This document shows, piece after piece, positions 7,802-31,734 of a stretch of DNA of 32,411 nucleotides. This DNA comes from a virus. Its lineage: Duplodnaviria; Caudoviricetes. The position numbers were made by a program, and so were the translations under genes. The DNA lies in the IMG/VR virus record IMGVR_UViG_3300024988_000224, positions 1-32,411 of that record; one strand, given 5' to 3'. Below the pieces are notes generated by a model. That model was given only the letters and a program-made list of their open reading frames with translations. It ran no database searches and was not told the DNA's origin. Within the stretch, counting starts at the first letter, position 1. Every line of letters starts with the position of its first letter.

Positions 7802-10800
7802 TTAGTATCGCATGCGCCTACGGATCATTGCCTCATTGTCCTGCCACTCGGCCTCAGCGATATACTTGCGGACCATCTCACGCAGGATTCTCGCCATGCG
7901 TGGGTGCTCGAACTCGCAAGCTTTGGCCCAGCCCTCATATTGATCCGCCAGCTCTCGCTCTTGCGCTCCGCCTTCACCCCGCCAAGTCGCACCGCGGGCA
8001 TTGTAGCGCCCAATTGTGATGCCGCGCTCAATCTCGACGCTATACAAATCATTGACGGCCTCCCGTACAGGTTCACAAGGCCATGATCCATCTTCTCCCA
8101 AAGGGGCGTGTGCGAGGATTTCCCCGATCTGATAATCAAGCATGGCGCGATGACCCGTTGGCTCACTGATGCGCCTTGCCTCGATAATCCATTCCTTCAG
8201 TTTCTCTGCGTGGATGACACCGTGTTCATCAACCCCAGGCACTGAAGAAAGTGCGTCAATAAAGGTGTTGGCGTTTCTGGCGGCCGTCTTCTGCTCATCG
8301 GTAGGTTCCGCATCCTTGGGTTCGTTCTTTCCCCTGTAGGCCATGCGAATGGCCTCGCAGAATAGAGATGGGTTGTCGTTTACCTCGGCCTCAAGGTTAG
8401 GAATACGCCCTCTATCGAACCTAAAGGCCTCCAGATACAGGAACTCCAGACCAGCCATCCTCTCGCGGCCAATTGTGCCGCGCGAATTGAGGATCTTGAA
8501 CACCTCCTCAATGGAGTGTCGATCCATCGAGGATGCTCCCCGCTCAGCTTCGTCGCTTCGGGGAAGAGCCTGCAGGATTTCGTAGAGCTGCTCGGACTCG
8601 ATGTTTTTCAGGTCCAGATGGACGAATTGCAGCGCCGTTAGACCGCGTCGGGCTTCAATTAGTTTTGTTACAGCGTAGCGTAGCTCATCCTCTGTCTGCC
8701 TTGCCCAGTGTGCGGACACAGTCCTCCAGTACCCTTCGGACACTGCGCGGCTTGAAGCTTCCACAGCGTCCCAAACTGTCTGCCCAAACCGGCAAAGGCA
8801 GAACAGGCGCACCAGCTGATCATCGGTCAGTTCGCCGCGCAATCCATTGATAAAGCCAACCGCGTTCTTGTCACCCAACGAGAAAAAGAAGCCGCCCAGC
8901 AGGAACTGTAGCTTGGTCGAAGTCAGGAAGTCGGAATCGCCAACGATGCGCCGGATAAAGGCGAGCTGATCCGCCTCGGAGCTCATGATCTGCGCGAGGT
9001 TGTTACCCACTAAGTGCGAAGCATTCCCAGAAAGAGCAAGGCGTACGGCACCAGTAACACCTTCCTGCGCCAACACAGCTTCGACGCCCGCCTTTCGTTG
9101 GTTGGCGATGCGCACGTCTCGTGCCTCGAAGTCGTGCTCGTCTTCGTGGATATCTTCCCACGAGTTCTCTACCCATGAATTCTTGAACAGCCACGCGTGC
9201 TTCCAGACGATATCGCTAGGCTCCAACTCGTCATAGATATCGCGGGCCTTGTTTACCTTGGCTTGCGTGGCCGTCTTCGGCGCTCCCTTCTTGCTCAGGC
9301 GGCGGGCACTCCTACTAACACCCATGCGGATTTGCTCCCTCAACCAAGCCCGATCCTCGTCGGTGGCCGCTTTTGCCCAGTCCACCACGCGATCCCACAC
9401 GCGTGCGCGATACTCGTCTCCAAAACCCTCCAGGCTATCCACCAAATCTGCAAGTTTCTCTCTTGTCATTGGCGTCCAAGAAAGGGCTACTTCAAGGCAG
9501 TGTTTTTCAAATTTCCAGCGCTCTCCGTTGGTCACCACTTCGCCGCTACCAAAGGCATAGTCCCTCCATTTCGGCTTGACGCTGTAGTGGCCGGTCCGCG
9601 ACCGTGAGTCATACTGGTCCCTCGCAACCGCCCATCCGACTTCGGGAAAGTGCTTCACCAACTGATCCAGGGCTGCAATCCGCTGCTTTACGTTGGCGGA
9701 GGTTTGGGGCATCCAGCTACGGAAGATCGAAAGCAGGCTTTGCTTCGCACTGTTGCCGCTACGATCCTCAGGCTCTAGTTCGCAAAGCTTTGCAAGCACA
9801 TCCACGACACGCTGGAGGTATTCCGGCGACCATGCCAACAAATCCAGTGCCCACAGCAGGCCAACTCTAGGATTTCTGGAAAACAGGGGGTCACCGACCG
9901 GGCGCATCAAGACCTGTGTGCTCGGATCATTTCTGGCCAAGTCCCGCTCGATAATGCCCAGGAACTCTTCGGGCGCGGCCTCAGCATACCGCTGGAATTC
10001 ATCGGATTGAGACTCAATTGTCTCGCCGTCCATGCTAGCGAAGAGCTTTCTCACCAGTAGCGTTGCCTGAGATTGAGTATCCACCCCCAGCTTGCTCCTG
10101 AAGAGCCCGTTGCCGTGCATCGCCAGAATAACCAAGCTATCGGCGATGCCTTCTCGCAGCGCAGAAGAGATGTCGCGGGTCTTGCCATGGATACTCGCTG
10201 CCCAGCGTTCACCTTCTGGAAGGTCGAGTGAAGGATCGGGCTCCGAAAGCACAAGGTCAGCAGCCTGATAGAAGCGCTCAAGATCCTCCGGCGTCACCCA
10301 TTGATGGACCGCGTAGAGGGCGTCAATCTTGGACACGACCCCTCGGAAGGATCCTATCGACCAGACGGGCGAACTCTCGATTGGGAGAAGATCGCCGAAC
10401 TCCCTCTCGACCTCCGCATATCTGTCCTCACCCATCAAATGGCAAAGGACAATTCGGTCAGCTTCGTTGTCATTCTTCCATGCACCTGCCAGCATGAAAG
10501 GAAACACTGAGCGCGCAAGCGCCTTGTCAGCGCTCCATGCCGGTGACTTGATTGCCTGATCTCGCGCTAGGCGGCGGCGCAGCACCGTGAGAGACCGTCC
10601 CGACTCGTCCTTGAGGCGTTCTATCGCATCGCCACCCAGCCCCATCGTTTCGAGGCCTTTGCGGAATGCTTCGCCGCTGAGCGTATCAAGAACAATATCC
10701 GCCTCGCTCTGTACCATAGTGCGCGGCACGATTGATATTCCACCAAGACGAGTTCCCGTCTCGGCCAGTTCCACCTCGGTTTCGCGGTTCGTAACGATCG

Positions 10801-11878
10801 GTATGAAGCGGGATGACTTGTTGGCGAGTTCGGTTAGCGGCCCGGCTTCAGAGAAGACGACTACGCGGTCGCGTATCGCGGCAAGCTCAGGGTCATCTCC
10901 GCTCAACATCGCGTAAACAAACGCAAGACCTTCCAGCACGGAGTCTGACGCGATCCGAAGCGTTCGATCCGCCCCTCGCAAATGTGTAAGGAGCTTCTTG
11001 CCAGCAATAATAGACGCTTCATCAAATATGTTCGGCGTAAAGGCCGGGTCGCAATCCGCATTCCACTTCACCCAGCAACGCTCAAGTGACTTCGTGCCAC
11101 GAAAGTCTTTGCCGCATTCGTTGGCAAACCAAACCTGAGCTGGAATGGACTGCGCCATCCATTGTTCAAGGTCGTTGGAGTCCAAAACGACAACATCTTT
11201 CCATTGCCTCGTCGCCAGTTGTGCTGTTGTCCATGCATCCTTTCCTGGCCAGCGCCGGGGTGTAACAAAGACAAATGTTGTCTTGAGCCTCTCAGCTTTG
11301 GGGGTGGATTTCACGCTCTTGGAAAAGTCACCGTCGGCTTTCTCTTTGATATTTCTGTTTGTTCCGAACTCCCAGCCGGACGCGCCGGCAGGTATCCACG
11401 GATTTCCTGCCTGCGTCTCGATCTTCCCGTCCCAGCCGGGGCGTTGGGAATCATCATGAGCCGGGAAGTTCACTTTCCGTAGGCCGTCACAGGTTGAGTG
11501 AACTAGCATCCTCAACAATGCGGCTAGTTTGGCGCGCGAATCCACATTATTTGCCCACTGCTCGATGTCATTTGCCTTCGGGGCAGCAAACGGCGGCACG
11601 AAGCTCCTTACAGCGGCCATGTTTGTCGTCGCCGCGCTTACTCCGGCATCGAAAACACTCTGCATCGCAAGCAGTTCACTCGCGCTCACGCCAAATGCCT
11701 TCTCAAGCTTCATGGCCATTTCACTTGAAAGGCTTGCGTTACCGTTCAGAAGATTCGACAGGGCGGGCCGTCCGACACCAATCGCCTTGGCGGCTTGGGT
11801 TACATTCATTCCCTTTGGGATGACATTGCTCTTGATGTATGGACCGGGATGGGCCGCGTTGGTGATTTTGCTCGACAT
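7802..11878 (-). CDS. 1358-aa protein: HigA-type HTH + restriction-endonuclease-like domain + long alpha-helical region; putative anti-phage protein
   Basis: N-terminal 'HPG.YI...MNVTQAAKAIGVGRPALSNLLNG.ASLSSEMAMKLEKAFG' is HigA-like; 'RPGWDG...GWEFG...KAD.D' is nuclease-like; AGGAG RBS. Confidence 0.8.
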   Translation of the reverse strand: MSSKITNAAHPGPYIKSNVIPKGMNVTQAAKAIGVGRPALSNLLNGNASLSSEMAMKLEKAFGVSASELLAMQSVFDAGVSAATTNMAAVRSFVPPFAAPKANDIEQWANNVDSRAKLAALLRMLVHSTCDGLRKVNFPAHDDSQRPGWDGKIETQAGNPWIPAGASGWEFGTNRNIKEKADGDFSKSVKSTPKAERLKTTFVFVTPRRWPGKDAWTTAQLATRQWKDVVVLDSNDLEQWMAQSIPAQVWFANECGKDFRGTKSLERCWVKWNADCDPAFTPNIFDEASIIAGKKLLTHLRGADRTLRIASDSVLEGLAFVYAMLSGDDPELAAIRDRVVVFSEAGPLTELANKSSRFIPIVTNRETEVELAETGTRLGGISIVPRTMVQSEADIVLDTLSGEAFRKGLETMGLGGDAIERLKDESGRSLTVLRRRLARDQAIKSPAWSADKALARSVFPFMLAGAWKNDNEADRIVLCHLMGEDRYAEVEREFGDLLPIESSPVWSIGSFRGVVSKIDALYAVHQWVTPEDLERFYQAADLVLSEPDPSLDLPEGERWAASIHGKTRDISSALREGIADSLVILAMHGNGLFRSKLGVDTQSQATLLVRKLFASMDGETIESQSDEFQRYAEAAPEEFLGIIERDLARNDPSTQVLMRPVGDPLFSRNPRVGLLWALDLLAWSPEYLQRVVDVLAKLCELEPEDRSGNSAKQSLLSIFRSWMPQTSANVKQRIAALDQLVKHFPEVGWAVARDQYDSRSRTGHYSVKPKWRDYAFGSGEVVTNGERWKFEKHCLEVALSWTPMTREKLADLVDSLEGFGDEYRARVWDRVVDWAKAATDEDRAWLREQIRMGVSRSARRLSKKGAPKTATQAKVNKARDIYDELEPSDIVWKHAWLFKNSWVENSWEDIHEDEHDFEARDVRIANQRKAGVEAVLAQEGVTGAVRLALSGNASHLVGNNLAQIMSSEADQLAFIRRIVGDSDFLTSTKLQFLLGGFFFSLGDKNAVGFINGLRGELTDDQLVRLFCLCRFGQTVWDAVEASSRAVSEGYWRTVSAHWARQTEDELRYAVTKLIEARRGLTALQFVHLDLKNIESEQLYEILQALPRSDEAERGASSMDRHSIEEVFKILNSRGTIGRERMAGLEFLYLEAFRFDRGRIPNLEAEVNDNPSLFCEAIRMAYRGKNEPKDAEPTDEQKTAARNANTFIDALSSVPGVDEHGVIHAEKLKEWIIEARRISEPTGHRAMLDYQIGEILAHAPLGEDGSWPCEPVREAVNDLYSVEIERGITIGRYNARGATWRGEGGAQERELADQYEGWAKACEFEHPRMARILREMVRKYIAEAEWQDNEAMIRRRMRY

Positions 11879-25821: not shown

Positions 25822-27492
25822 ATGGCCCGCAATCTGATCCTGACCGACCGCTGGGGCTATGAGGTGGATCGCGCCAGCCTGACCCGCGATGTCGGGGCGC
25901 CGAGCCTTTCGGGGGCGCGCTCGCCGCTGACCTCCTATCCGGGCGACGGGCTGAACCCGCTGCGGCTGGCGCAGATCCTGCGCGCGGCCGATCACGGCGA
26001 TCCGGTGCGCTATATGGAACTGGCCGAGGTGATCGAGGAACGCGACCCGCATTATCTGGGCGTGATCGGCACCCGGAAGCGGTCGGTCTCGCAGCTCGAC
26101 ATCACGGTCGAGGCCGCCTCGGACGATGCCCATGACGGGAAGCTGGCGGATATGGTCCGCGACTGGGTCAAGCGCGACGAGCTGCAGCAGGAGCTGTTCC
26201 ATATCCTCGACTGCCTGTCGAAGGGTTATTCCGCCACGGCGATCATCTGGGATCATTCCGAGGGGCAGTATCTGCCGAAGGAGCTGGCCTGGCGCGATCC
26301 CCGGATCATCCGGTTTGCCCGTCACGATCTGGCGCGGCCGCTGATGCTGGATGACAGCGGACGCGAGGTGCCGCTGCCTGCCTTCCGCTTCGTCTTTGCC
26401 GATATCCCGGCCAAATCCGGCATCCTGCTGCGCGCCGGACTGGCGCGGGTTGCGATGTGGGGCTGGATGTTCAAGGCCTTCACCGGGCGCGACTGGGCGA
26501 TCTTCACCCAGACCTATGGCCAGCCGCTGCGGGTCGGCAAATGGCAGCCCGGGGCCAGCGAGCAGGACAAGGCCACGCTGTTCCGGGCGGTGGCCAATAT
26601 CGCCGGGGATTGCGCCGCGCTGATCCCCGACACGATGTCGATCGACTTCATCGAGTCGAAATCCATCGGCCAGTCGGGCGATCTGTACGAGAAGCGGGTC
26701 AATCACCTCGACCAGCAGATCTCGAAGGCGGTGCTGGGGCAGACCGCGACCACCGATGCCATCGCCGGGGGCCATGCGGTCGGGCGCGAGCACCGGCTGG
26801 TGCAGGAGGATATCGAGGGCGCGGATGCCAGCGCGCTTTCGGCGATCATCAACCGCGATGTGATCCGGCCGTGGATCCAGCTCGAGTTCGGGCCGCAGAA
26901 ACGGTATCCAAGGATTCGGATCGGCCGCCCGAAGACCGAGGATCTGAGCGCGCTGGCCACGGCCGTCGACAAGATGGTCCGTCTGGGGATGGAGATCGAA
27001 GAGGGCGAGATCCGCGCCCGCTTCGGTTTCTCTGAACCCAAGCCCGGCGCCCGGCTTCTGCGGGCGGCAGCGCCCGTTTCCACCGCTGATCTGGCCGGAT
27101 CGGCACCCTTGGGGGAGGGAGAGGACCGGGCTTCAAAATCTAAACGGGTTTCCGCCGAAATTAAACGGGGTCAGGGCCTCCCGGGCACAGAGACCGCCCT
27201 GCAGGCCGAAGGCCCCTCAGCGGCGATTTCTGGCGGTCCCGGCGCGGCCACAGATCCGGCTGCCGATCTGGCCGATCAGCTGGCCCGCGCCGCCCCGCCG
27301 GTGATCGACGGGATGATCGGCCAGATCGAGCTGATGATGACGGCTGCCGGCAGCCTCGAGGAGTTCCGGCAGATGCTGCTCGCGGGCTTCCCAAACCTTG
27401 ATGCGCAGGCCATGGCGCAGCTGATGGCGGAGGCCTTCCTGACCGCCGATCTGGCCGGGCGTCTGGATGCGGACGGGCGTGGCGATGGCTGA
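25822..27492 (+). CDS. Portal protein (Mu gp29/DUF935)
   Basis: 'E.IEERD.H', 'W..F...YG.P.RVGK', 'ISKAVLGQT.T' signatures. Confidence 0.92.
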   Translation: MARNLILTDRWGYEVDRASLTRDVGAPSLSGARSPLTSYPGDGLNPLRLAQILRAADHGDPVRYMELAEVIEERDPHYLGVIGTRKRSVSQLDITVEAASDDAHDGKLADMVRDWVKRDELQQELFHILDCLSKGYSATAIIWDHSEGQYLPKELAWRDPRIIRFARHDLARPLMLDDSGREVPLPAFRFVFADIPAKSGILLRAGLARVAMWGWMFKAFTGRDWAIFTQTYGQPLRVGKWQPGASEQDKATLFRAVANIAGDCAALIPDTMSIDFIESKSIGQSGDLYEKRVNHLDQQISKAVLGQTATTDAIAGGHAVGREHRLVQEDIEGADASALSAIINRDVIRPWIQLEFGPQKRYPRIRIGRPKTEDLSALATAVDKMVRLGMEIEEGEIRARFGFSEPKPGARLLRAAAPVSTADLAGSAPLGEGEDRASKSKRVSAEIKRGQGLPGTETALQAEGPSAAISGGPGAATDPAADLADQLARAAPPVIDGMIGQIELMMTAAGSLEEFRQMLLAGFPNLDAQAMAQLMAEAFLTADLAGRLDADGRGDG

Positions 27493-28762
27493 GGTCGGCT
27501 TCGGCTTCAACCAGCTCTTTGCCGAACAGCAGGCGGCCTTCCGGCTGCGGCTCGGCAATCTGCTGCCCACCGGCGCCTGGGATGACCTGCGTCATAACCA
27601 GCATGATCGGGCCTTCGTCGTTGCCGGGGCGCTGAAGGCGGATCTGCTGGCCGATCTGGCGGCGGCGGTCGACAAGGCGATCTCGCAGGGCACCTCGCTC
27701 GAGGTCTTCCGCAAGGACTTCCGCCAGATCGTGGCCCGGCATGGCTGGACCGGCTGGACCGGCGAAGGCAGCGCGAAGGGCGAGGCCTGGCGCACGCGGG
27801 TGATCTACCAGACCAACCTGCTGACCAGCTATGCGGCGGGGCGGCGGGCGCAGTTGCTGGCCGGGAAGTACAAATACTGGGTCTACCGCCATTCCGGGGC
27901 CGAACATCCCCGGCTGCATCACCTGGCGCTGGACGGCATCGCGCTGCCGCCGGATCATCCGTTCTGGGCGAAGTTCTTCCCGCCGAACGGCTGGGGCTGC
28001 GGCTGCCGGGTGTTCGGCGCACACACCGAAGCCGGGATCCGCCGGGTCGGCGGCGATCCCGGCAAGCAACTGCCGCCGGACTGGGACCGGCCCGACCCGC
28101 GCACCGGGCTCCCGAAAGGGCTCCAGAAGGGCTGGGATTACGCGCCGGGCGCCAGCACGGCCGAGACCATCCTGACGCTGAAGGACAAGCTGCCGCGCCT
28201 CCCGGCCCCGATTGGCGCGCGGCTGTTCGAAAGCTGGCCTGCGGGCAAGACTGCGGATCTCGACCGCGCCTTCGGTGCCTTTGTCGATCAGGCGCTCGGG
28301 CAATTTGTCCAGGGCCGCCATATGGTGATCGGCGCGCTGAAGCCGGGCTGGGTCGATGCGGCGATCCGGCATGGCGTGACGCCGGAAACCGCCGAGATCG
28401 TGGTGACCGATCTCAATGTGCAGCACACGTTCCGGGGCACGGATCATGTGACCGTCGCCTCGACCCGCGCGGTGCCGCGCCAGCCCAAGGCCGCGCCACT
28501 GGATCTGGACTGGTACAAGGGTATGCCGGGGCGGCTGGCGCACCCGAGGGCGGTGCTGCTGGACAAGACCTCTGGCGAGCCGGTCTTCCTGCTCGTCTAT
28601 GACGTGCCGGGGCAGAATGTGAAAATGGTCATCGAGATCAACAGCTGGGTGAAGAAGGCCAGGGCCACGTTCAACACCATGCAAACCGGCCGCTTCGTGA
28701 CCCTGAACGATCTGGCTGCCACACTCGGCGCCGGGGTCACGCTGATCGAAGGGAGGATCTGA
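27485..28762 (+). CDS. MuF (gp30) minor head protein with C-terminal extension, probably a BECR-fold nuclease
   Basis: MuF core 'RAFVVAG', 'IYQTN..TSY.AGR', 'R..H..LDG..L..DHPFW...PPNGWGC.C', 'GWDY.PG', then about 200 additional aa. Confidence 0.88.
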   Translation: MAEVGFGFNQLFAEQQAAFRLRLGNLLPTGAWDDLRHNQHDRAFVVAGALKADLLADLAAAVDKAISQGTSLEVFRKDFRQIVARHGWTGWTGEGSAKGEAWRTRVIYQTNLLTSYAAGRRAQLLAGKYKYWVYRHSGAEHPRLHHLALDGIALPPDHPFWAKFFPPNGWGCGCRVFGAHTEAGIRRVGGDPGKQLPPDWDRPDPRTGLPKGLQKGWDYAPGASTAETILTLKDKLPRLPAPIGARLFESWPAGKTADLDRAFGAFVDQALGQFVQGRHMVIGALKPGWVDAAIRHGVTPETAEIVVTDLNVQHTFRGTDHVTVASTRAVPRQPKAAPLDLDWYKGMPGRLAHPRAVLLDKTSGEPVFLLVYDVPGQNVKMVIEINSWVKKARATFNTMQTGRFVTLNDLAATLGAGVTLIEGRI

Positions 28763-28840
28763 GGCCGGGTTGGACTCGAACCAACATCAATTCCCAGCAA
28801 GCTGGCGAACCCCCTTGCCCATCGGGGTACACGGCCTCAG
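28759..28840 (-). ncRNA. tRNA-like RNA lacking an anticodon loop
   Basis: 9-bp closing stem CTGAGGCCG/CGGCCTCAG; TA then D-arm CCCC-GATGGGCAA-GGGG; arm TTC(G)CCAG-CTTG-CTGGGAA; 5-nt variable loop; perfect T-arm GTTGG-TTCGAGT-CCAAC. Confidence 0.72.
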
Positions 28841-28855
28841 GAGGACAATATAGTC

Positions 28856-29386
28856 ATGTTCACGATTGAAATAAAGGATGCGGAGGTAGAGCAGGCGCTG
28901 ACCGGGCTTCAGGCGCTGCTGTCCGACCTCAGCCAGGTGATGCGCCAGATCGGCGATGCGCTGGTGCAATCCACGCAGGACCGTATGCTGATCGGCCAGA
29001 GCCCGGACGGATCGCCCTTCGCCCCGCGCGCCGCCTCGACCCTGAAAGCCTATGAGAAGAAGGGCGCGAAACCCGGCCCCTATCCGCTCTGGCTGGAGGG
29101 GGACATGCGACGGGGCATCAACTTCCGGTCCGGCCCCGACTTCGTCTCGGTCGGATCAAATGCCCTGCAGGCTGCGGTCATGCAGTTCGGCGCGAAGCAG
29201 GGCCAGTTCGGCGCCCGCATGGGCCGGACCAGGCAGAAAGACGGCGGCCCCGCCTCCCGCGACTATTTCCAACACCTCCCCTGGGGCGACATCCCGGCCC
29301 GGCCTTTCCTCGGCCTCTCCGACACCGACCGCTCCAACATCCTCGATATCGTCCGCGAGGCCTTCGAGGCGCAGGTGGGAGGGTGA
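28856..29386 (+). CDS. Virion morphogenesis protein (Mu gpG-like)
   Basis: 'M..IG..L..ST..R...Q.PDG..F', 'VGSN...AA..QFG', 'IPARPFLGLS..D'. Confidence 0.9.
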   Translation: MFTIEIKDAEVEQALTGLQALLSDLSQVMRQIGDALVQSTQDRMLIGQSPDGSPFAPRAASTLKAYEKKGAKPGPYPLWLEGDMRRGINFRSGPDFVSVGSNALQAAVMQFGAKQGQFGARMGRTRQKDGGPASRDYFQHLPWGDIPARPFLGLSDTDRSNILDIVREAFEAQVGG

Positions 29387-29652: not shown

Positions 29653-31734
29653 TCAAATCAGCCACTCTACCTGGGTTCCGGTGATAGTAACAACACTGTA
29701 GAAAACACCGCCCGACACCCGAACCAGATGGTGCCCAGAGCCGTACTCATCAAAGCTGTCATCATCCAGAATGTTCTTGATGGACTGGTCGTAATGTGAC
29801 AGCGACGTTGTGATGGTACGCTTGTCGGCGTCAGTATATCGAACCTGAACGCCATCCAGAAGAACGTATAGGCCGTCGGGTTGCTTGCGGTTTCCTGTAA
29901 AATTCAACGTCTTGTCTTCCAACACAGCTGCAAAGCCAAGGCTGGTTAAATCAATCTGATCCGCATCATTCCCGATAATGTTGATACTGGATCCGGCGGC
30001 GAAGGGCGCATCGAAAATGAAACGGTCACTCTCGCCCGAGATGCTGCCGTAAATGTAGTAATCTGTCGGACCTTTCGTCGTATTGATGATGGTGACGGTT
30101 TCGCTTTCATCTGTGCCAGTCAGTAGAAACGGGGCGGCCCCGTCGGCCGTGCGCTTGTCGAGCTGCTTGATAGAAATCTTGACAGACGTCACGCCTTCCG
30201 CCAGAGCGACCTCTTCCACATTCTTGAAGACATAGCTGCCATTCTCGATCAGGGCAGCCAAGTCGATGCCTCCTCCCTTACGTTCGACCACGGTGTCAAA
30301 CCGACCAACAAGATAAAGATCCCGACCGGAACCGCCGGTCATCGTATCCCAGCCTGCCCCGCCATTCAGCACGTCATTGCCGTCACCGCCAAATAGGCCG
30401 TCGCGTCCGGCGCCCCCCAACAGCAGATCACTGCCTGCCCCGCCGAACACGGCATCGTCGCCGCCGCCAGCGAACAGAATGTCATTGCCTTCCTCGCCGA
30501 GCAGACGGTCGTCAAATCCCTTGGTGTCCTTCCATCTGGGATCAACCGGCCCGCTGTAGAACTGGGCGTAGACAAAGGCAGTCTGCGTAGTAACCAGGGT
30601 CTCCGCATCGGGATAATACCAATTGGCGTAAAGCACCGGGTTTCCGTTATATCCGTTGGTTCCAATTAGACGCGTGGGCTCGGTCTGATAGTTGTAGATG
30701 TTTCCATCCCCCGACACCGTATCATTGCCTTTTCCCGCATTGATAAGGTCCTTGCCCTCCTTGCCGATAACGATATCGGTCGTCTTATTCATAGAGTAGA
30801 GCGTATCGTTGCCACCCGACAGATCCACATAAGTCAGGGCGCTGTTCTTCGCGGTCAGACGGAAGATGTCATTTTCGGATGAGCCCAGGTAAAAACTGTT
30901 CCTCTTGGGGTCATAATTCGAAGGCAGAATTCCTATACCGAAATTTCGCGGATCAAATTCGATTTTTTGACCTTCGGAGGTGCGGACAAATATGTTGTCG
31001 GTGAAATCGATTTTACGGCCATAGGTTCCGGTTTCAATTCGGTCAAGCGACTCGATCACCGCTTTTATGGCATGGCTGTCCAATCTGCCAGAGCCATTGT
31101 CGACCCAGATACGATCTGTACCGCGGCCCCGTGCAAGTGGAGAAAATAGCTTATAGACCGGGTCGTTCTGAAATCCGAAATTGAACACGCCGGGTTTCAG
31201 GATTGGCGATTCGAACCCGATATAATCCGCACTGCTCCAGATTTCGGAACGCCCCCCGAATGCCAGAACATCCGAATGGAGCTTGTTGACGATCCACGCT
31301 CCAAGACTGTGCCCTGTCACAGTCAACTGAACACCGGGCGTCACCACCTTTTCAATCGCCGCCAAAAGTCGGCTGAATTCCAGAATATAAAAACTGCTCG
31401 CGGCATCAGCCCATCCGACCACGTCGGATTTTTTGAAAGAACCAATCTCGCTAAAATCTGTCCCGCGAAACGACAGGATGTATTCGGCCTTGGCCCCGCG
31501 GCCCGAACGCAAGAGCACCGCCGCGCCACGGCCATCCTCTGTCAGAAAGGTCCGGCCATCGCTGGATATGTTGCGCGAGGGTATGGTGCCATCCGCCAGA
31601 TTCCGGAGGTTCACTGGGATCCATCCTGAACCCTGCAACGCAGGATACAGATCATATGCCGCCTGAGAGGCCAGTGCGGCATCGCTCAACTGATCCCAAG
31701 TGACCTCGACGGGGGACTTATCCAGAAAAGACAT
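29653..31734 (-). CDS. Lipase-like (alpha/beta hydrolase) protein with RTX Ca-binding repeats; antisense moron
   Basis: 'LSFRGTD', 'VTGHSLG', 'NDPV' lipase-3-like motifs; multiple GGxGxDxL nonamers; no obvious signal peptide; lower GC than flanks. Confidence 0.85.
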   Translation of the reverse strand: MSFLDKSPVEVTWDQLSDAALASQAAYDLYPALQGSGWIPVNLRNLADGTIPSRNISSDGRTFLTEDGRGAAVLLRSGRGAKAEYILSFRGTDFSEIGSFKKSDVVGWADAASSFYILEFSRLLAAIEKVVTPGVQLTVTGHSLGAWIVNKLHSDVLAFGGRSEIWSSADYIGFESPILKPGVFNFGFQNDPVYKLFSPLARGRGTDRIWVDNGSGRLDSHAIKAVIESLDRIETGTYGRKIDFTDNIFVRTSEGQKIEFDPRNFGIGILPSNYDPKRNSFYLGSSENDIFRLTAKNSALTYVDLSGGNDTLYSMNKTTDIVIGKEGKDLINAGKGNDTVSGDGNIYNYQTEPTRLIGTNGYNGNPVLYANWYYPDAETLVTTQTAFVYAQFYSGPVDPRWKDTKGFDDRLLGEEGNDILFAGGGDDAVFGGAGSDLLLGGAGRDGLFGGDGNDVLNGGAGWDTMTGGSGRDLYLVGRFDTVVERKGGGIDLAALIENGSYVFKNVEEVALAEGVTSVKISIKQLDKRTADGAAPFLLTGTDESETVTIINTTKGPTDYYIYGSISGESDRFIFDAPFAAGSSINIIGNDADQIDLTSLGFAAVLEDKTLNFTGNRKQPDGLYVLLDGVQVRYTDADKRTITTSLSHYDQSIKNILDDDSFDEYGSGHHLVRVSGGVFYSVVTITGTQVEWLI

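Follow-up and report, generated by a model that had tools for sequence, protein, structure and literature searches.

A conserved, predicted tRNA-shaped antisense RNA accompanies the predicted RNase tail of the MuF head protein in transposable prophages

Introduction

Toxins fused to the phage minor head protein MuF have an immunity open reading frame (ORF) directly downstream in 89.4% of 191 cases, according to the accessible text of Jamet et al. 2017 (PMC5576092). The 32,411-base virus record analysed here (IMGVR_UViG_3300024988_000224, hereafter the window) raises the question of what can fill this place when there is little room for a gene. We take the window to be a transposable prophage because it encodes a CI-type repressor, a Mu-type transposase A and B, a late activator, terminase, portal, F and G. 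Its F gene, which encodes an extended MuF, is separated from G by 93 bp, and the sole frame in this gap is a plus-strand ORF of 27 codons with a TTG start. As the initial annotation of this locus had pointed out, this is too small for a typical immunity ORF; the gap is conserved as RNA structure. That annotation proposed that the MuF extension is a virion-delivered tRNA-cutting enzyme, neutralised in the lysogen by an uncleavable tRNA decoy transcribed from the opposite strand. Here we report that the gap carries a conserved tRNA-shaped sequence, predicted to encode an RNA, whose presence is tied to an intact PBECR-type active site in the MuF tail. This RNA family appears to be undescribed: no description of it was found in the accessible parts of the literature searched (including PMC5512222, 10.64898/2026.08.28.747851, 10.64898/2026.09.22.753630, PMC5576092, PMC4553209 and PMC6776037), most subscription papers and all supplements lying outside that scope.

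Results

The gap encodes a conserved cloverleaf that is not a tRNA

On the minus strand (28840-28759), the cloverleaf is both the minimum-free-energy (MFE) and the centroid structure (-36.1 kcal/mol, z -2.43; 3 of 200 shuffles folded as well). The 9-bp closing stem, the 4-bp D stem with GG in its loop, the T arm, the CUUG loop and the absent CCA of the initial annotation were all present, with two refinements: the variable loop has 4 nt in the MFE structure, not 5, and an extra G-C pair follows a conserved bulged U, ahead of U8-A9. The 3' strand of the closing stem overlaps the MuF stop codon, and the Shine-Dalgarno sequence of G (28839-28844) overlaps the 5' end of the RNA. Since the plus-strand mirror of the element folds equally well (z -3.19), folding alone decides neither the reality of the structure nor its strand.

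Homologous loci were therefore compared, gathered in sets of 3, 27, 15 and 27 with the F tail as query. In an alignment of 28 window-like sequences (class I), 96.6% of cells were paired and 14 of 18 pairs had changed on both sides. None of 500 shuffles matched this covariation, and structures slid along the alignment gave 30–58% pairing, in tests of a kind that relatedness inflates. The pairing in homologues, together with covariation that no shuffle reached, excludes a chance fold, and the alignment indicates that the cloverleaf is real and under selection. G-U outnumbered A-C cells by 15 to 6, which favours the minus strand.

In class I, U8 is invariant, as are one G of the D loop, the T-loop UUC and A, the AU ahead of the T stem and the G-C pair beside the bulged U (the pair in 28/28 sequences, the U in 26/28); the D-loop GG and the UUCRA T loop are likewise invariant or nearly so. 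The arm at the anticodon position is the least conserved, varying from 15 to 32 nt with loops of 3–7 nt, of which 16 were tetraloops and none was a canonical anticodon loop. CUUG itself was found in one of the 28 sequences and was rejected as the key feature. The combination expected of a functional tRNA (a 7-nt anticodon loop, U33 and a purine at 37) was found in 0/28, and no CCA occurs in the 3–4 bases available after the stem. ARAGORN called no tRNA in the window, as had been foreseen, but did so in 15 of 53 related loci, and eight of these calls carried an identity where only pseudo or undetermined calls had been expected; the identities disagree (four Arg and one each of Lys, Cys, Pro and Gly, with seven undetermined). 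An Rfam scan of the window found no family at its cut-off, tRNA-Sec coming to 24.9 bits against a cut-off of 47, and only L014 of 15 class I loci passed the tRNA cut-off. Judged by its hypervariable third arm and the missing canonical anticodon loop, the element is no working tRNA.

The covariance model R1 scored the window RNA, which was part of its training set, at 110 bits and found it in single copy. It recovered several loci that a screen for MFE cloverleaves had missed. R1 also scored other sites in two bacterial genomes, probably tRNA genes, at up to 37.6 bits, so scores of 20–40 bits mean only 'tRNA-like'. Elsewhere in the window, which holds an incomplete prophage, the RNA has no second match of at least 12 nt (one 11-nt same-sense copy only) and no complement of at least 11 nt; no U-tract terminator was called downstream of it. 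Public sequencing-run contigs (Logan) from four runs cover the locus patchily, the two recorded as RNA lacking cover at 28749-28819, and as contigs show neither strand nor ends they give no evidence either way.

A promoter motif precedes the RNA

Both boxes of the antisense promoter proposed earlier, a -10 and a -35 at 17 bp, were present, the -35 lying opposite the first codons of G. A strict promoter scan of the window returned 0 sites. When the best site within a 20-base window upstream of the stem was taken in 96 loci, a TAnnnT -10 motif was found in 77, compared with 9% and 18% in control windows; 55 of these 77 sit 5–7 nt from the stem, and in 51 loci TTG stands 16–18 nt further upstream. 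The motif is retained in 41 of 53 loci in which the G start is not adjacent or was not found, and it is therefore no by-product of the G ribosome site. In Pasteurellaceae-type prophages (L237-L308), insertions of 250–750 bases often separate the RNA gene and its promoter from G, and the RNA stays with F.

The MuF tail carries a PBECR-type domain with its predicted active site intact

The Pfam model MuF_C (PF18819) matched the window domain at E 0.0039 and 17.7 bits, under its 27.6-bit cut-off. Among 81 family members, 24 matched the same model at E≤0.01 (the strongest at 9.7e-15), and the tail of Mu gp30 matched the family profile (E 2.3e-9), so that the membership of the window domain holds through its relatives. 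An AlphaFold model (pLDDT, the predicted local distance difference test, 93.5) has a helix at 309-315 followed by four long strands, the layout of the BECR core, and a second model of the domain core reached a pLDDT of 91.2. Foldseek searches of BFVD returned matches to MuF-C and polyvalent nuclease models, 10 of them at E≤0.001; PBECR2/MuF_C matches in the ESM Atlas, at ≤0.87, are a lead only. Against the PDB, Foldseek gave 0 matches at E≤0.001 and a profile search of the sequences nothing significant, absence there being uninformative. The VIA ranking placed BrnT (Z 4.6), colicin D (4.3), CdiA NC101 (3.9) and CdiA Kp342 (3.9) first, all weakly, and DUF3800 motifs gave no match. The fold expected of the tail, PBECR or colicin-like, was thus recovered as a PBECR/MuF-C-type domain with His and Thr in place, the structural matches to BECR ribonucleases (RNases) being weak.

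Active PBECR domains have a His in the first helix and a Ser or Thr in a late strand, and the Mu copy has been called inactive, in the accessible text of Iyer et al. 2017 (PMC5512222). The window has both residues, His314 and Thr401, and a late-strand Ser or Thr is present in 93 of 103 His-positive representatives of the family. The tail is a predicted RNase. It has 46 close homologues and, by profile, 1,279 clusters at 50% identity; its nearest named relative, at 86% over 66 residues, comes from a Gemmobacter genome, where it is a fragment. JBD18, DMS3, phiSHP3 and Mu (L154, L155, L156 and L162) have lost the His motif and still keep the tail domain whole, a hint that it may have a structural role as well.

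The RNA and the His motif are lost together

In 80 loci chosen by the MuF anchor alone (79 with a stop), MuF carried short, MuF-C-type, PBECR3-type or HExxH-type tails, an exchangeable C-terminal domain in the head module. The class I model had no match beside 8/8 short MuFs and 3/3 HExxH-type tails; a model of the class II RNAs described below was negative beside seven of the eight short MuFs and all three HExxH-type tails.

The window-type family comprised 239 loci, reduced to 119 representatives and to 118 once a duplicate was dropped. Both the His and the RNA were present in 96 of these and both were absent from 14; six had the His but no RNA under a strict rule, one had the RNA alone and one was too short. 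Four of the six have R1 matches (L029, L060, L061, L275), and a variant T loop was recognised by eye in L289. In all 14 representatives in which F abuts G the His is lost, including Mu, DMS3, JBD18 and phiSHP3. Two natural pairs illustrate this association: phage B3 is intact with a 123-nt gap, whereas JBD18 is decayed with a gap of -4, and the Mu relatives L204-L231 keep His and RNA, whereas Mu has lost both. On a tree of the MuF N-terminal region, seven supported independent pairs were found, about six of them in the same direction (sign test, median p 0.031). The trees were built with FastTree and carry long-branch warnings. Over 93 rows, the RNA class changed 10 times on the tail tree, 21 times on that of the MuF N-terminal anchor, 23 times on that of G and about 47 times when shuffled. 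The tail and the RNA, with fewest class changes on the tail tree, thus move as one cassette.

A pattern scan that started from the RNA gave 22 loci, of which 15 were tail-to-tail with the domain, one (L318) lay beside a short MuF and six, two of them near-identical, stood alone. In L318 the MuF has no tail, and the RNA and its -10 box are still intact. Of the six lone RNAs, five belong to compact records derived from Mu, where they run in the sense direction and are flanked by a gemA-like gene and the major head gene; the sixth lies in a prophage fragment that is not Mu-like. A search of 5 lone-RNA records, which are 11–21% complete, found the domain in none. Among relatives of these records, R1 matched at the same position, just upstream of the head gene, in 6 of 80. 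The RNA can thus be kept without a cis partner, and the expectation that it would occur only with an extended MuF held for the MuF-anchor set but not for the RNA-first matches. The lone copies may be immunity genes that have been orphaned, or they may point to a separate function of the RNA.

The compact records themselves (L339-L355, L358 and L379; 4–11 kb) have a gemA-like gene, head and protease genes, mostly G and in some cases a transposase. None was seen to carry a terminase, portal or MuF, and they are possibly satellites. Six hold the tRNA-like RNA, L349 two copies of it.

Other tails are followed by other structured RNAs

Distant homologues (21–31% tail identity) carry a class II RNA with a longer D stem and an 8–10-nt T loop without UUCRA. 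The sequence of its D loop complements that of its T loop (91.8% paired in the alignment). In the 25 of 30 loci that could be parsed, giving 21 distinct loop pairs from related rows, the longest Watson-Crick run between D and T loops averaged 4.05, compared with 3.07 for non-cognate loops, a difference reached in 0 of 10,000 permutations. Class II reads as a tRNA elbow rebuilt by covarying D/T kissing pairs; since it keeps the D/T contact by Watson-Crick pairing, the L shape would be what selection keeps. Across the gaps of MuF homologues, the forecast of conserved D and T arms around a variable arm at the anticodon position was thus borne out in class I, whereas class II replaces the elbow motifs. 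In 14 class II loci, Rfam gave no match at the position of the RNA. In phage B3 the class II RNA lies under an annotated 32-codon ORF, ORF34 (L153:2098-2196), which was probably called in error.

PBECR3-type MuF tails are followed, just after the MuF stop and on the minus strand, by a different structured antisense RNA with a -10 motif, a conserved small hairpin and often a U tract (L100, L101, L107, L116, L118, L122 and L137-L151; also L075-L086, L091 and L094). In 14 sequences, 13 of its 18 predicted pairs covary, and Rfam gave no match in 15 loci with mostly PBECR3-type tails. L080, with a PBECR3-type tail and a 3-nt gap, lacks the His of its relatives.

Two further arrangements were seen downstream of MuF. 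L121, L124 and L134, whose tails have a different motif, carry a third type of conserved structured antisense sequence. Among the loci listed, L144 (3225-3430) and L299 hold tandem tRNA-like copies, which in L144 are of different subtypes; the arrangement resembles an immunity array.

Features of the locus and neighbouring genes

The coordinates of the locus are collected in Table 1. Two other proteins of the window stand out. One, of 693 aa with RTX calcium-binding repeats (29653-31734, minus strand), is inserted between G and a likely protease gene in the orientation opposite to the late genes. The other, of 1,358 aa (7802-11878, minus strand), has an N-terminal helix-turn-helix and belongs to PHROG 18693 (function not known); it adjoins a DNA methyltransferase and the repressor.

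Table 1 Features of the F-G region, in window coordinates.
Feature	Position	Strand	Evidence
MuF (gpF) minor head protein gene, 425 aa, C-terminal extension	27485..28762	+	Pfam PF04233 Phage_Mu_F E 1.1e-10, residues 58-176; PHROG 220 E 8e-80
C-terminal MuF-C/PBECR-type domain, about residues 280-425, predicted RNase	28322..28759	+	His314 codon 28424-28426; Thr401 codon 28685-28687
tRNA-shaped non-coding RNA gene (predicted), about 82 nt	28759..28840	-	fold, covariation, model R1 110 bits (window sequence in training set)
T arm, canonical UUCRA loop	28769..28785	-	99.3% paired, 4/5 pairs covary
Third (anticodon-position) arm, hypervariable length and loop	28790..28810	-	arm 15-32 nt, loops 3-7 nt, 0/28 canonical
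D arm of 4 bp; GG conserved in its 9-nt loop	28811..28827	-	90.2% paired, 3/4 pairs covary
Acceptor-like closing stem, 5' strand 28840-28832; bulged U 28831; G 28830 pairs with C 28768; then U8-A9	28828..28840	-	
Predicted sigma-70-type promoter: -10 28852-28847, -35 28875-28870, 17-bp spacer, 6 nt from stem	28847..28875	-	sequence; motif conservation
gpG (neck / tail completion) gene	28856..29386	+	Pfam PF05069 E 8.6e-31; PHROG 26

Discussion

We lean, with slightly better than even confidence, towards reading the element as an RNA immunity gene, conserved and tRNA-shaped, whose partner is a predicted RNase carried by the virion; this RNase would bind the RNA via the elbow and the acceptor/T arm rather than at the anticodon. 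An RNA antitoxin is the best reading because the RNA may stand alone while the intact domain almost never does, because the RNA lies where an immunity ORF would, and because its predicted promoter is independent of the late operon. Of the initial proposal, the antitoxin idea stands in part, with a PBECR-type tail, no protein immunity gene and a conserved antisense RNA that has a promoter motif and is lost together with the His; the uncleavable anticodon decoy is not supported.

In the mechanism that we propose, the host sigma-70 enzyme would make the RNA both in the lysogen and in lytic growth, independently of the late operon. MuF would be packaged at the portal and injected, and its tail would cut host RNA, most likely tRNA recognised by its shape and not at the anticodon. 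The RNA, presenting no cleavable or chargeable end, would fill the active site and so guard the producer and its lysogens against incoming MuF. Once the active site decays, the RNA could be deleted until F abuts G, as in Mu. Conservation falls on the elbow, the bulge and the acceptor/T arm but not on the third arm, so recognition by shape is likely, and cleavage on the T side or at the acceptor end is likelier than at the anticodon; BECR toxins that cut the tRNA acceptor end exist (PMC9086364, in the text available).

Several observations weigh against this interpretation. Phage TJ1 (L160) has the His and a different downstream structure, and L026 has the RNA without the His. The sign test ranges up to p 0.22, and the tree of the C-terminal tail gives only four supported pairs (p 0.25). 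The rules for scoring His and RNA were chosen after the data had been seen, and the class II labels come partly from the training set. Joint loss fits any protein-RNA partnership, co-inheritance on the trees may reflect physical linkage, and 7 of 22 RNA-first matches have no adjacent domain. The likeness of the fold to solved BECR RNases is weak (best Z 4.6, none reaching 5). PBECR domains may also spare tRNA and cut mRNA or CRISPR RNA, as the accessible text of Iyer et al. suggests (PMC5512222).

The alternative that survives best reverses the roles of the partners: the domain would carry or mature the RNA, which would itself be the effector. The tail would bind or trim the RNA and load it into the virion; once it has entered the cell, the RNA might serve as a decoy for host defence nucleases that target tRNA, for instance, or for another tRNA-binding factor. 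Joint loss and co-inheritance fit this equally well, and the copies that stand alone in compact elements derived from Mu (found in 6 of 80 records) suggest that the RNA has value without a cis partner. As no U-tract terminator follows the window RNA, its 3' end would need processing, and RNA binding has been proposed for the inactive domain of Mu (Iyer et al., PMC5512222, text available). A carrier should, however, leave intact domains that have recently lost the RNA, and none of the 14 representatives in which F abuts G keeps the His. A sigma-70-type antisense promoter also suits expression in the lysogen more than late packaging, and orphan copies are expected of immunity genes as well. We consider this reversal fairly unlikely, though worth keeping in view.

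Alternatively, the element might act by antisense pairing or by interfering with transcription, with no binding to the protein: its promoter, convergent with F, and a stable RNA, tRNA-like and processed, would keep down the leaky expression of a toxic F. P1 and P4 offer a model in their C4/CI RNAs, which are antisense cloverleaves. The predicted promoter does point into F, the sequence of the RNA is complementary to the stop of F, to the gap and to the Shine-Dalgarno sequence of G, and its loss together with the active site would be expected here too. An antisense RNA nonetheless has no need of the conserved elbow, bulge and D/T kissing contact, nor should its type track that of the protein; there is no second match of 12 nt or more in the window, and Rfam gave no C4 match. 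This makes interference improbable.

An anticodon nuclease held by a decoy that is uncleavable through its tetraloop, as first proposed for this locus, would suit the tetraloops of class I, the lack of canonical loops and the second place of colicin D in the VIA ranking. The arm held in the active site should then be conserved, and it is the one that varies most; with CUUG in one of 28 class I sequences and loops of several sizes, that claim is not supported as it was framed. The acceptor-end cutters CdiA NC101 and Kp342 score about as well as colicin D (activities from the text available of PMC9086364). The protein thus more likely reads the elbow and acceptor/T arm, and we regard an anticodon decoy as very improbable. 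Finally, although the plus strand folds as well, ARAGORN calls tRNAs in some relatives and L014 passes the Rfam tRNA cut-off, a decayed tRNA, an att remnant or a plus-strand structure controlling G translation is hardly credible and was rejected, given the compensatory changes, the discordant tRNA identities, the G-U bias, a UUCRA motif found only on the minus strand, the retention of the RNA where other genes separate it from G and its loss while G stays, and a Mu-type transposase, which uses no tRNA att site.

The proposed RNA immunity gene would set this locus apart from the systems that it most resembles. Iyer et al. describe PBECR domains fused to MuF, with the first-helix His and late-strand Ser/Thr and with the Mu gp30 tail as an inactive member; in the accessible text the activity is predicted only, mRNA or CRISPR RNA is favoured as target, and no partner RNA or immunity factor is named (PMC5512222). 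The MuF polymorphic toxins of Jamet et al., which lie in the head module of temperate phages, likewise have a MuF anchor, a C-terminal domain that can be exchanged and a cognate factor directly downstream; theirs is a small protein ORF on the same strand, which the window lacks, whereas here it is a convergent structured RNA, and the term 'non-coding' does not occur in the text available (PMC5576092). The RNA occupies the position that immunity ORFs take beside MuF toxins, and by this analogy would serve in their stead.

In type III systems (ToxIN, AbiQ, CptIN and TenpIN) and in the AbiF-RCd22 pair, which is prophage-encoded and rescues in trans, an RNA is likewise proposed to bind and silence an RNase toxin (10.1101/2025.04.15.648962, text available). 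Those RNAs are upstream, co-transcribed repeats ahead of a terminator, built of pseudoknot or hairpin units and serving ToxN-type or AbiF toxins. The window RNA is instead a single tRNA-shaped copy downstream on the other strand, convergent and with its own promoter motif, and the candidate toxin is fused to a virion protein; it has no ToxN/CptN/TenpN or AbiF match in Pfam and groups with MuF_C. That the RNA would neutralise the toxin by direct binding is suggested by their joint loss. The BECR tRNases colicin D, CdiA-CT NC101 and Kp342, and BrnT are the top structural neighbours of the tail (Z 3.9–4.6), are His-dependent and in several cases cut the tRNA acceptor end; all have protein immunity and none is virion-borne (PMC9086364, text available).

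With canonical tRNA and tRNA-Sec (Rfam RF00005 and RF01852) the RNA shares the cloverleaf, U8, the D-loop GG and the UUCRA T loop, and it differs in its Rfam score, its bulged and extended acceptor stem and the lack of an anticodon loop and of CCA. Other tRNA mimics or cloverleaf non-coding RNAs are known, some in phages, among them the bacterial Y RNA YrlA and the phage C4/CI RNAs. Rfam matches to YrlA or C4/CI were found in neither the window nor the class I or class II loci searched, and the conservation pattern is not that of a base-pairing regulator.

More tentatively, and with somewhat less than even confidence, the RNA class may follow the domain subfamily throughout: tRNA mimics would serve MuF-C-type tails and other folds PBECR3 types, each nuclease travelling with its cognate antisense RNA as a cassette, with orphan copies in Mu-derived mini-elements and Mu as the decayed end state. 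The MuF-PBECR proteins would then be virion-delivered RNases of transposable phages.

Some of these elements have been miscalled as tRNAs or small ORFs, as with B3 ORF34, and the class II RNAs amount to a natural redesign of the tRNA elbow. The cultured phage B3 has an intact pair and JBD18 has lost it, so a direct test is possible. If the proposed pairing is true, it would be a polymorphic toxin with RNA rather than protein immunity and an antitoxin that acts by tRNA mimicry; it would also give a function to the PBECR domains predicted in 2017 and explain why the Mu copy is inactive and without a partner.

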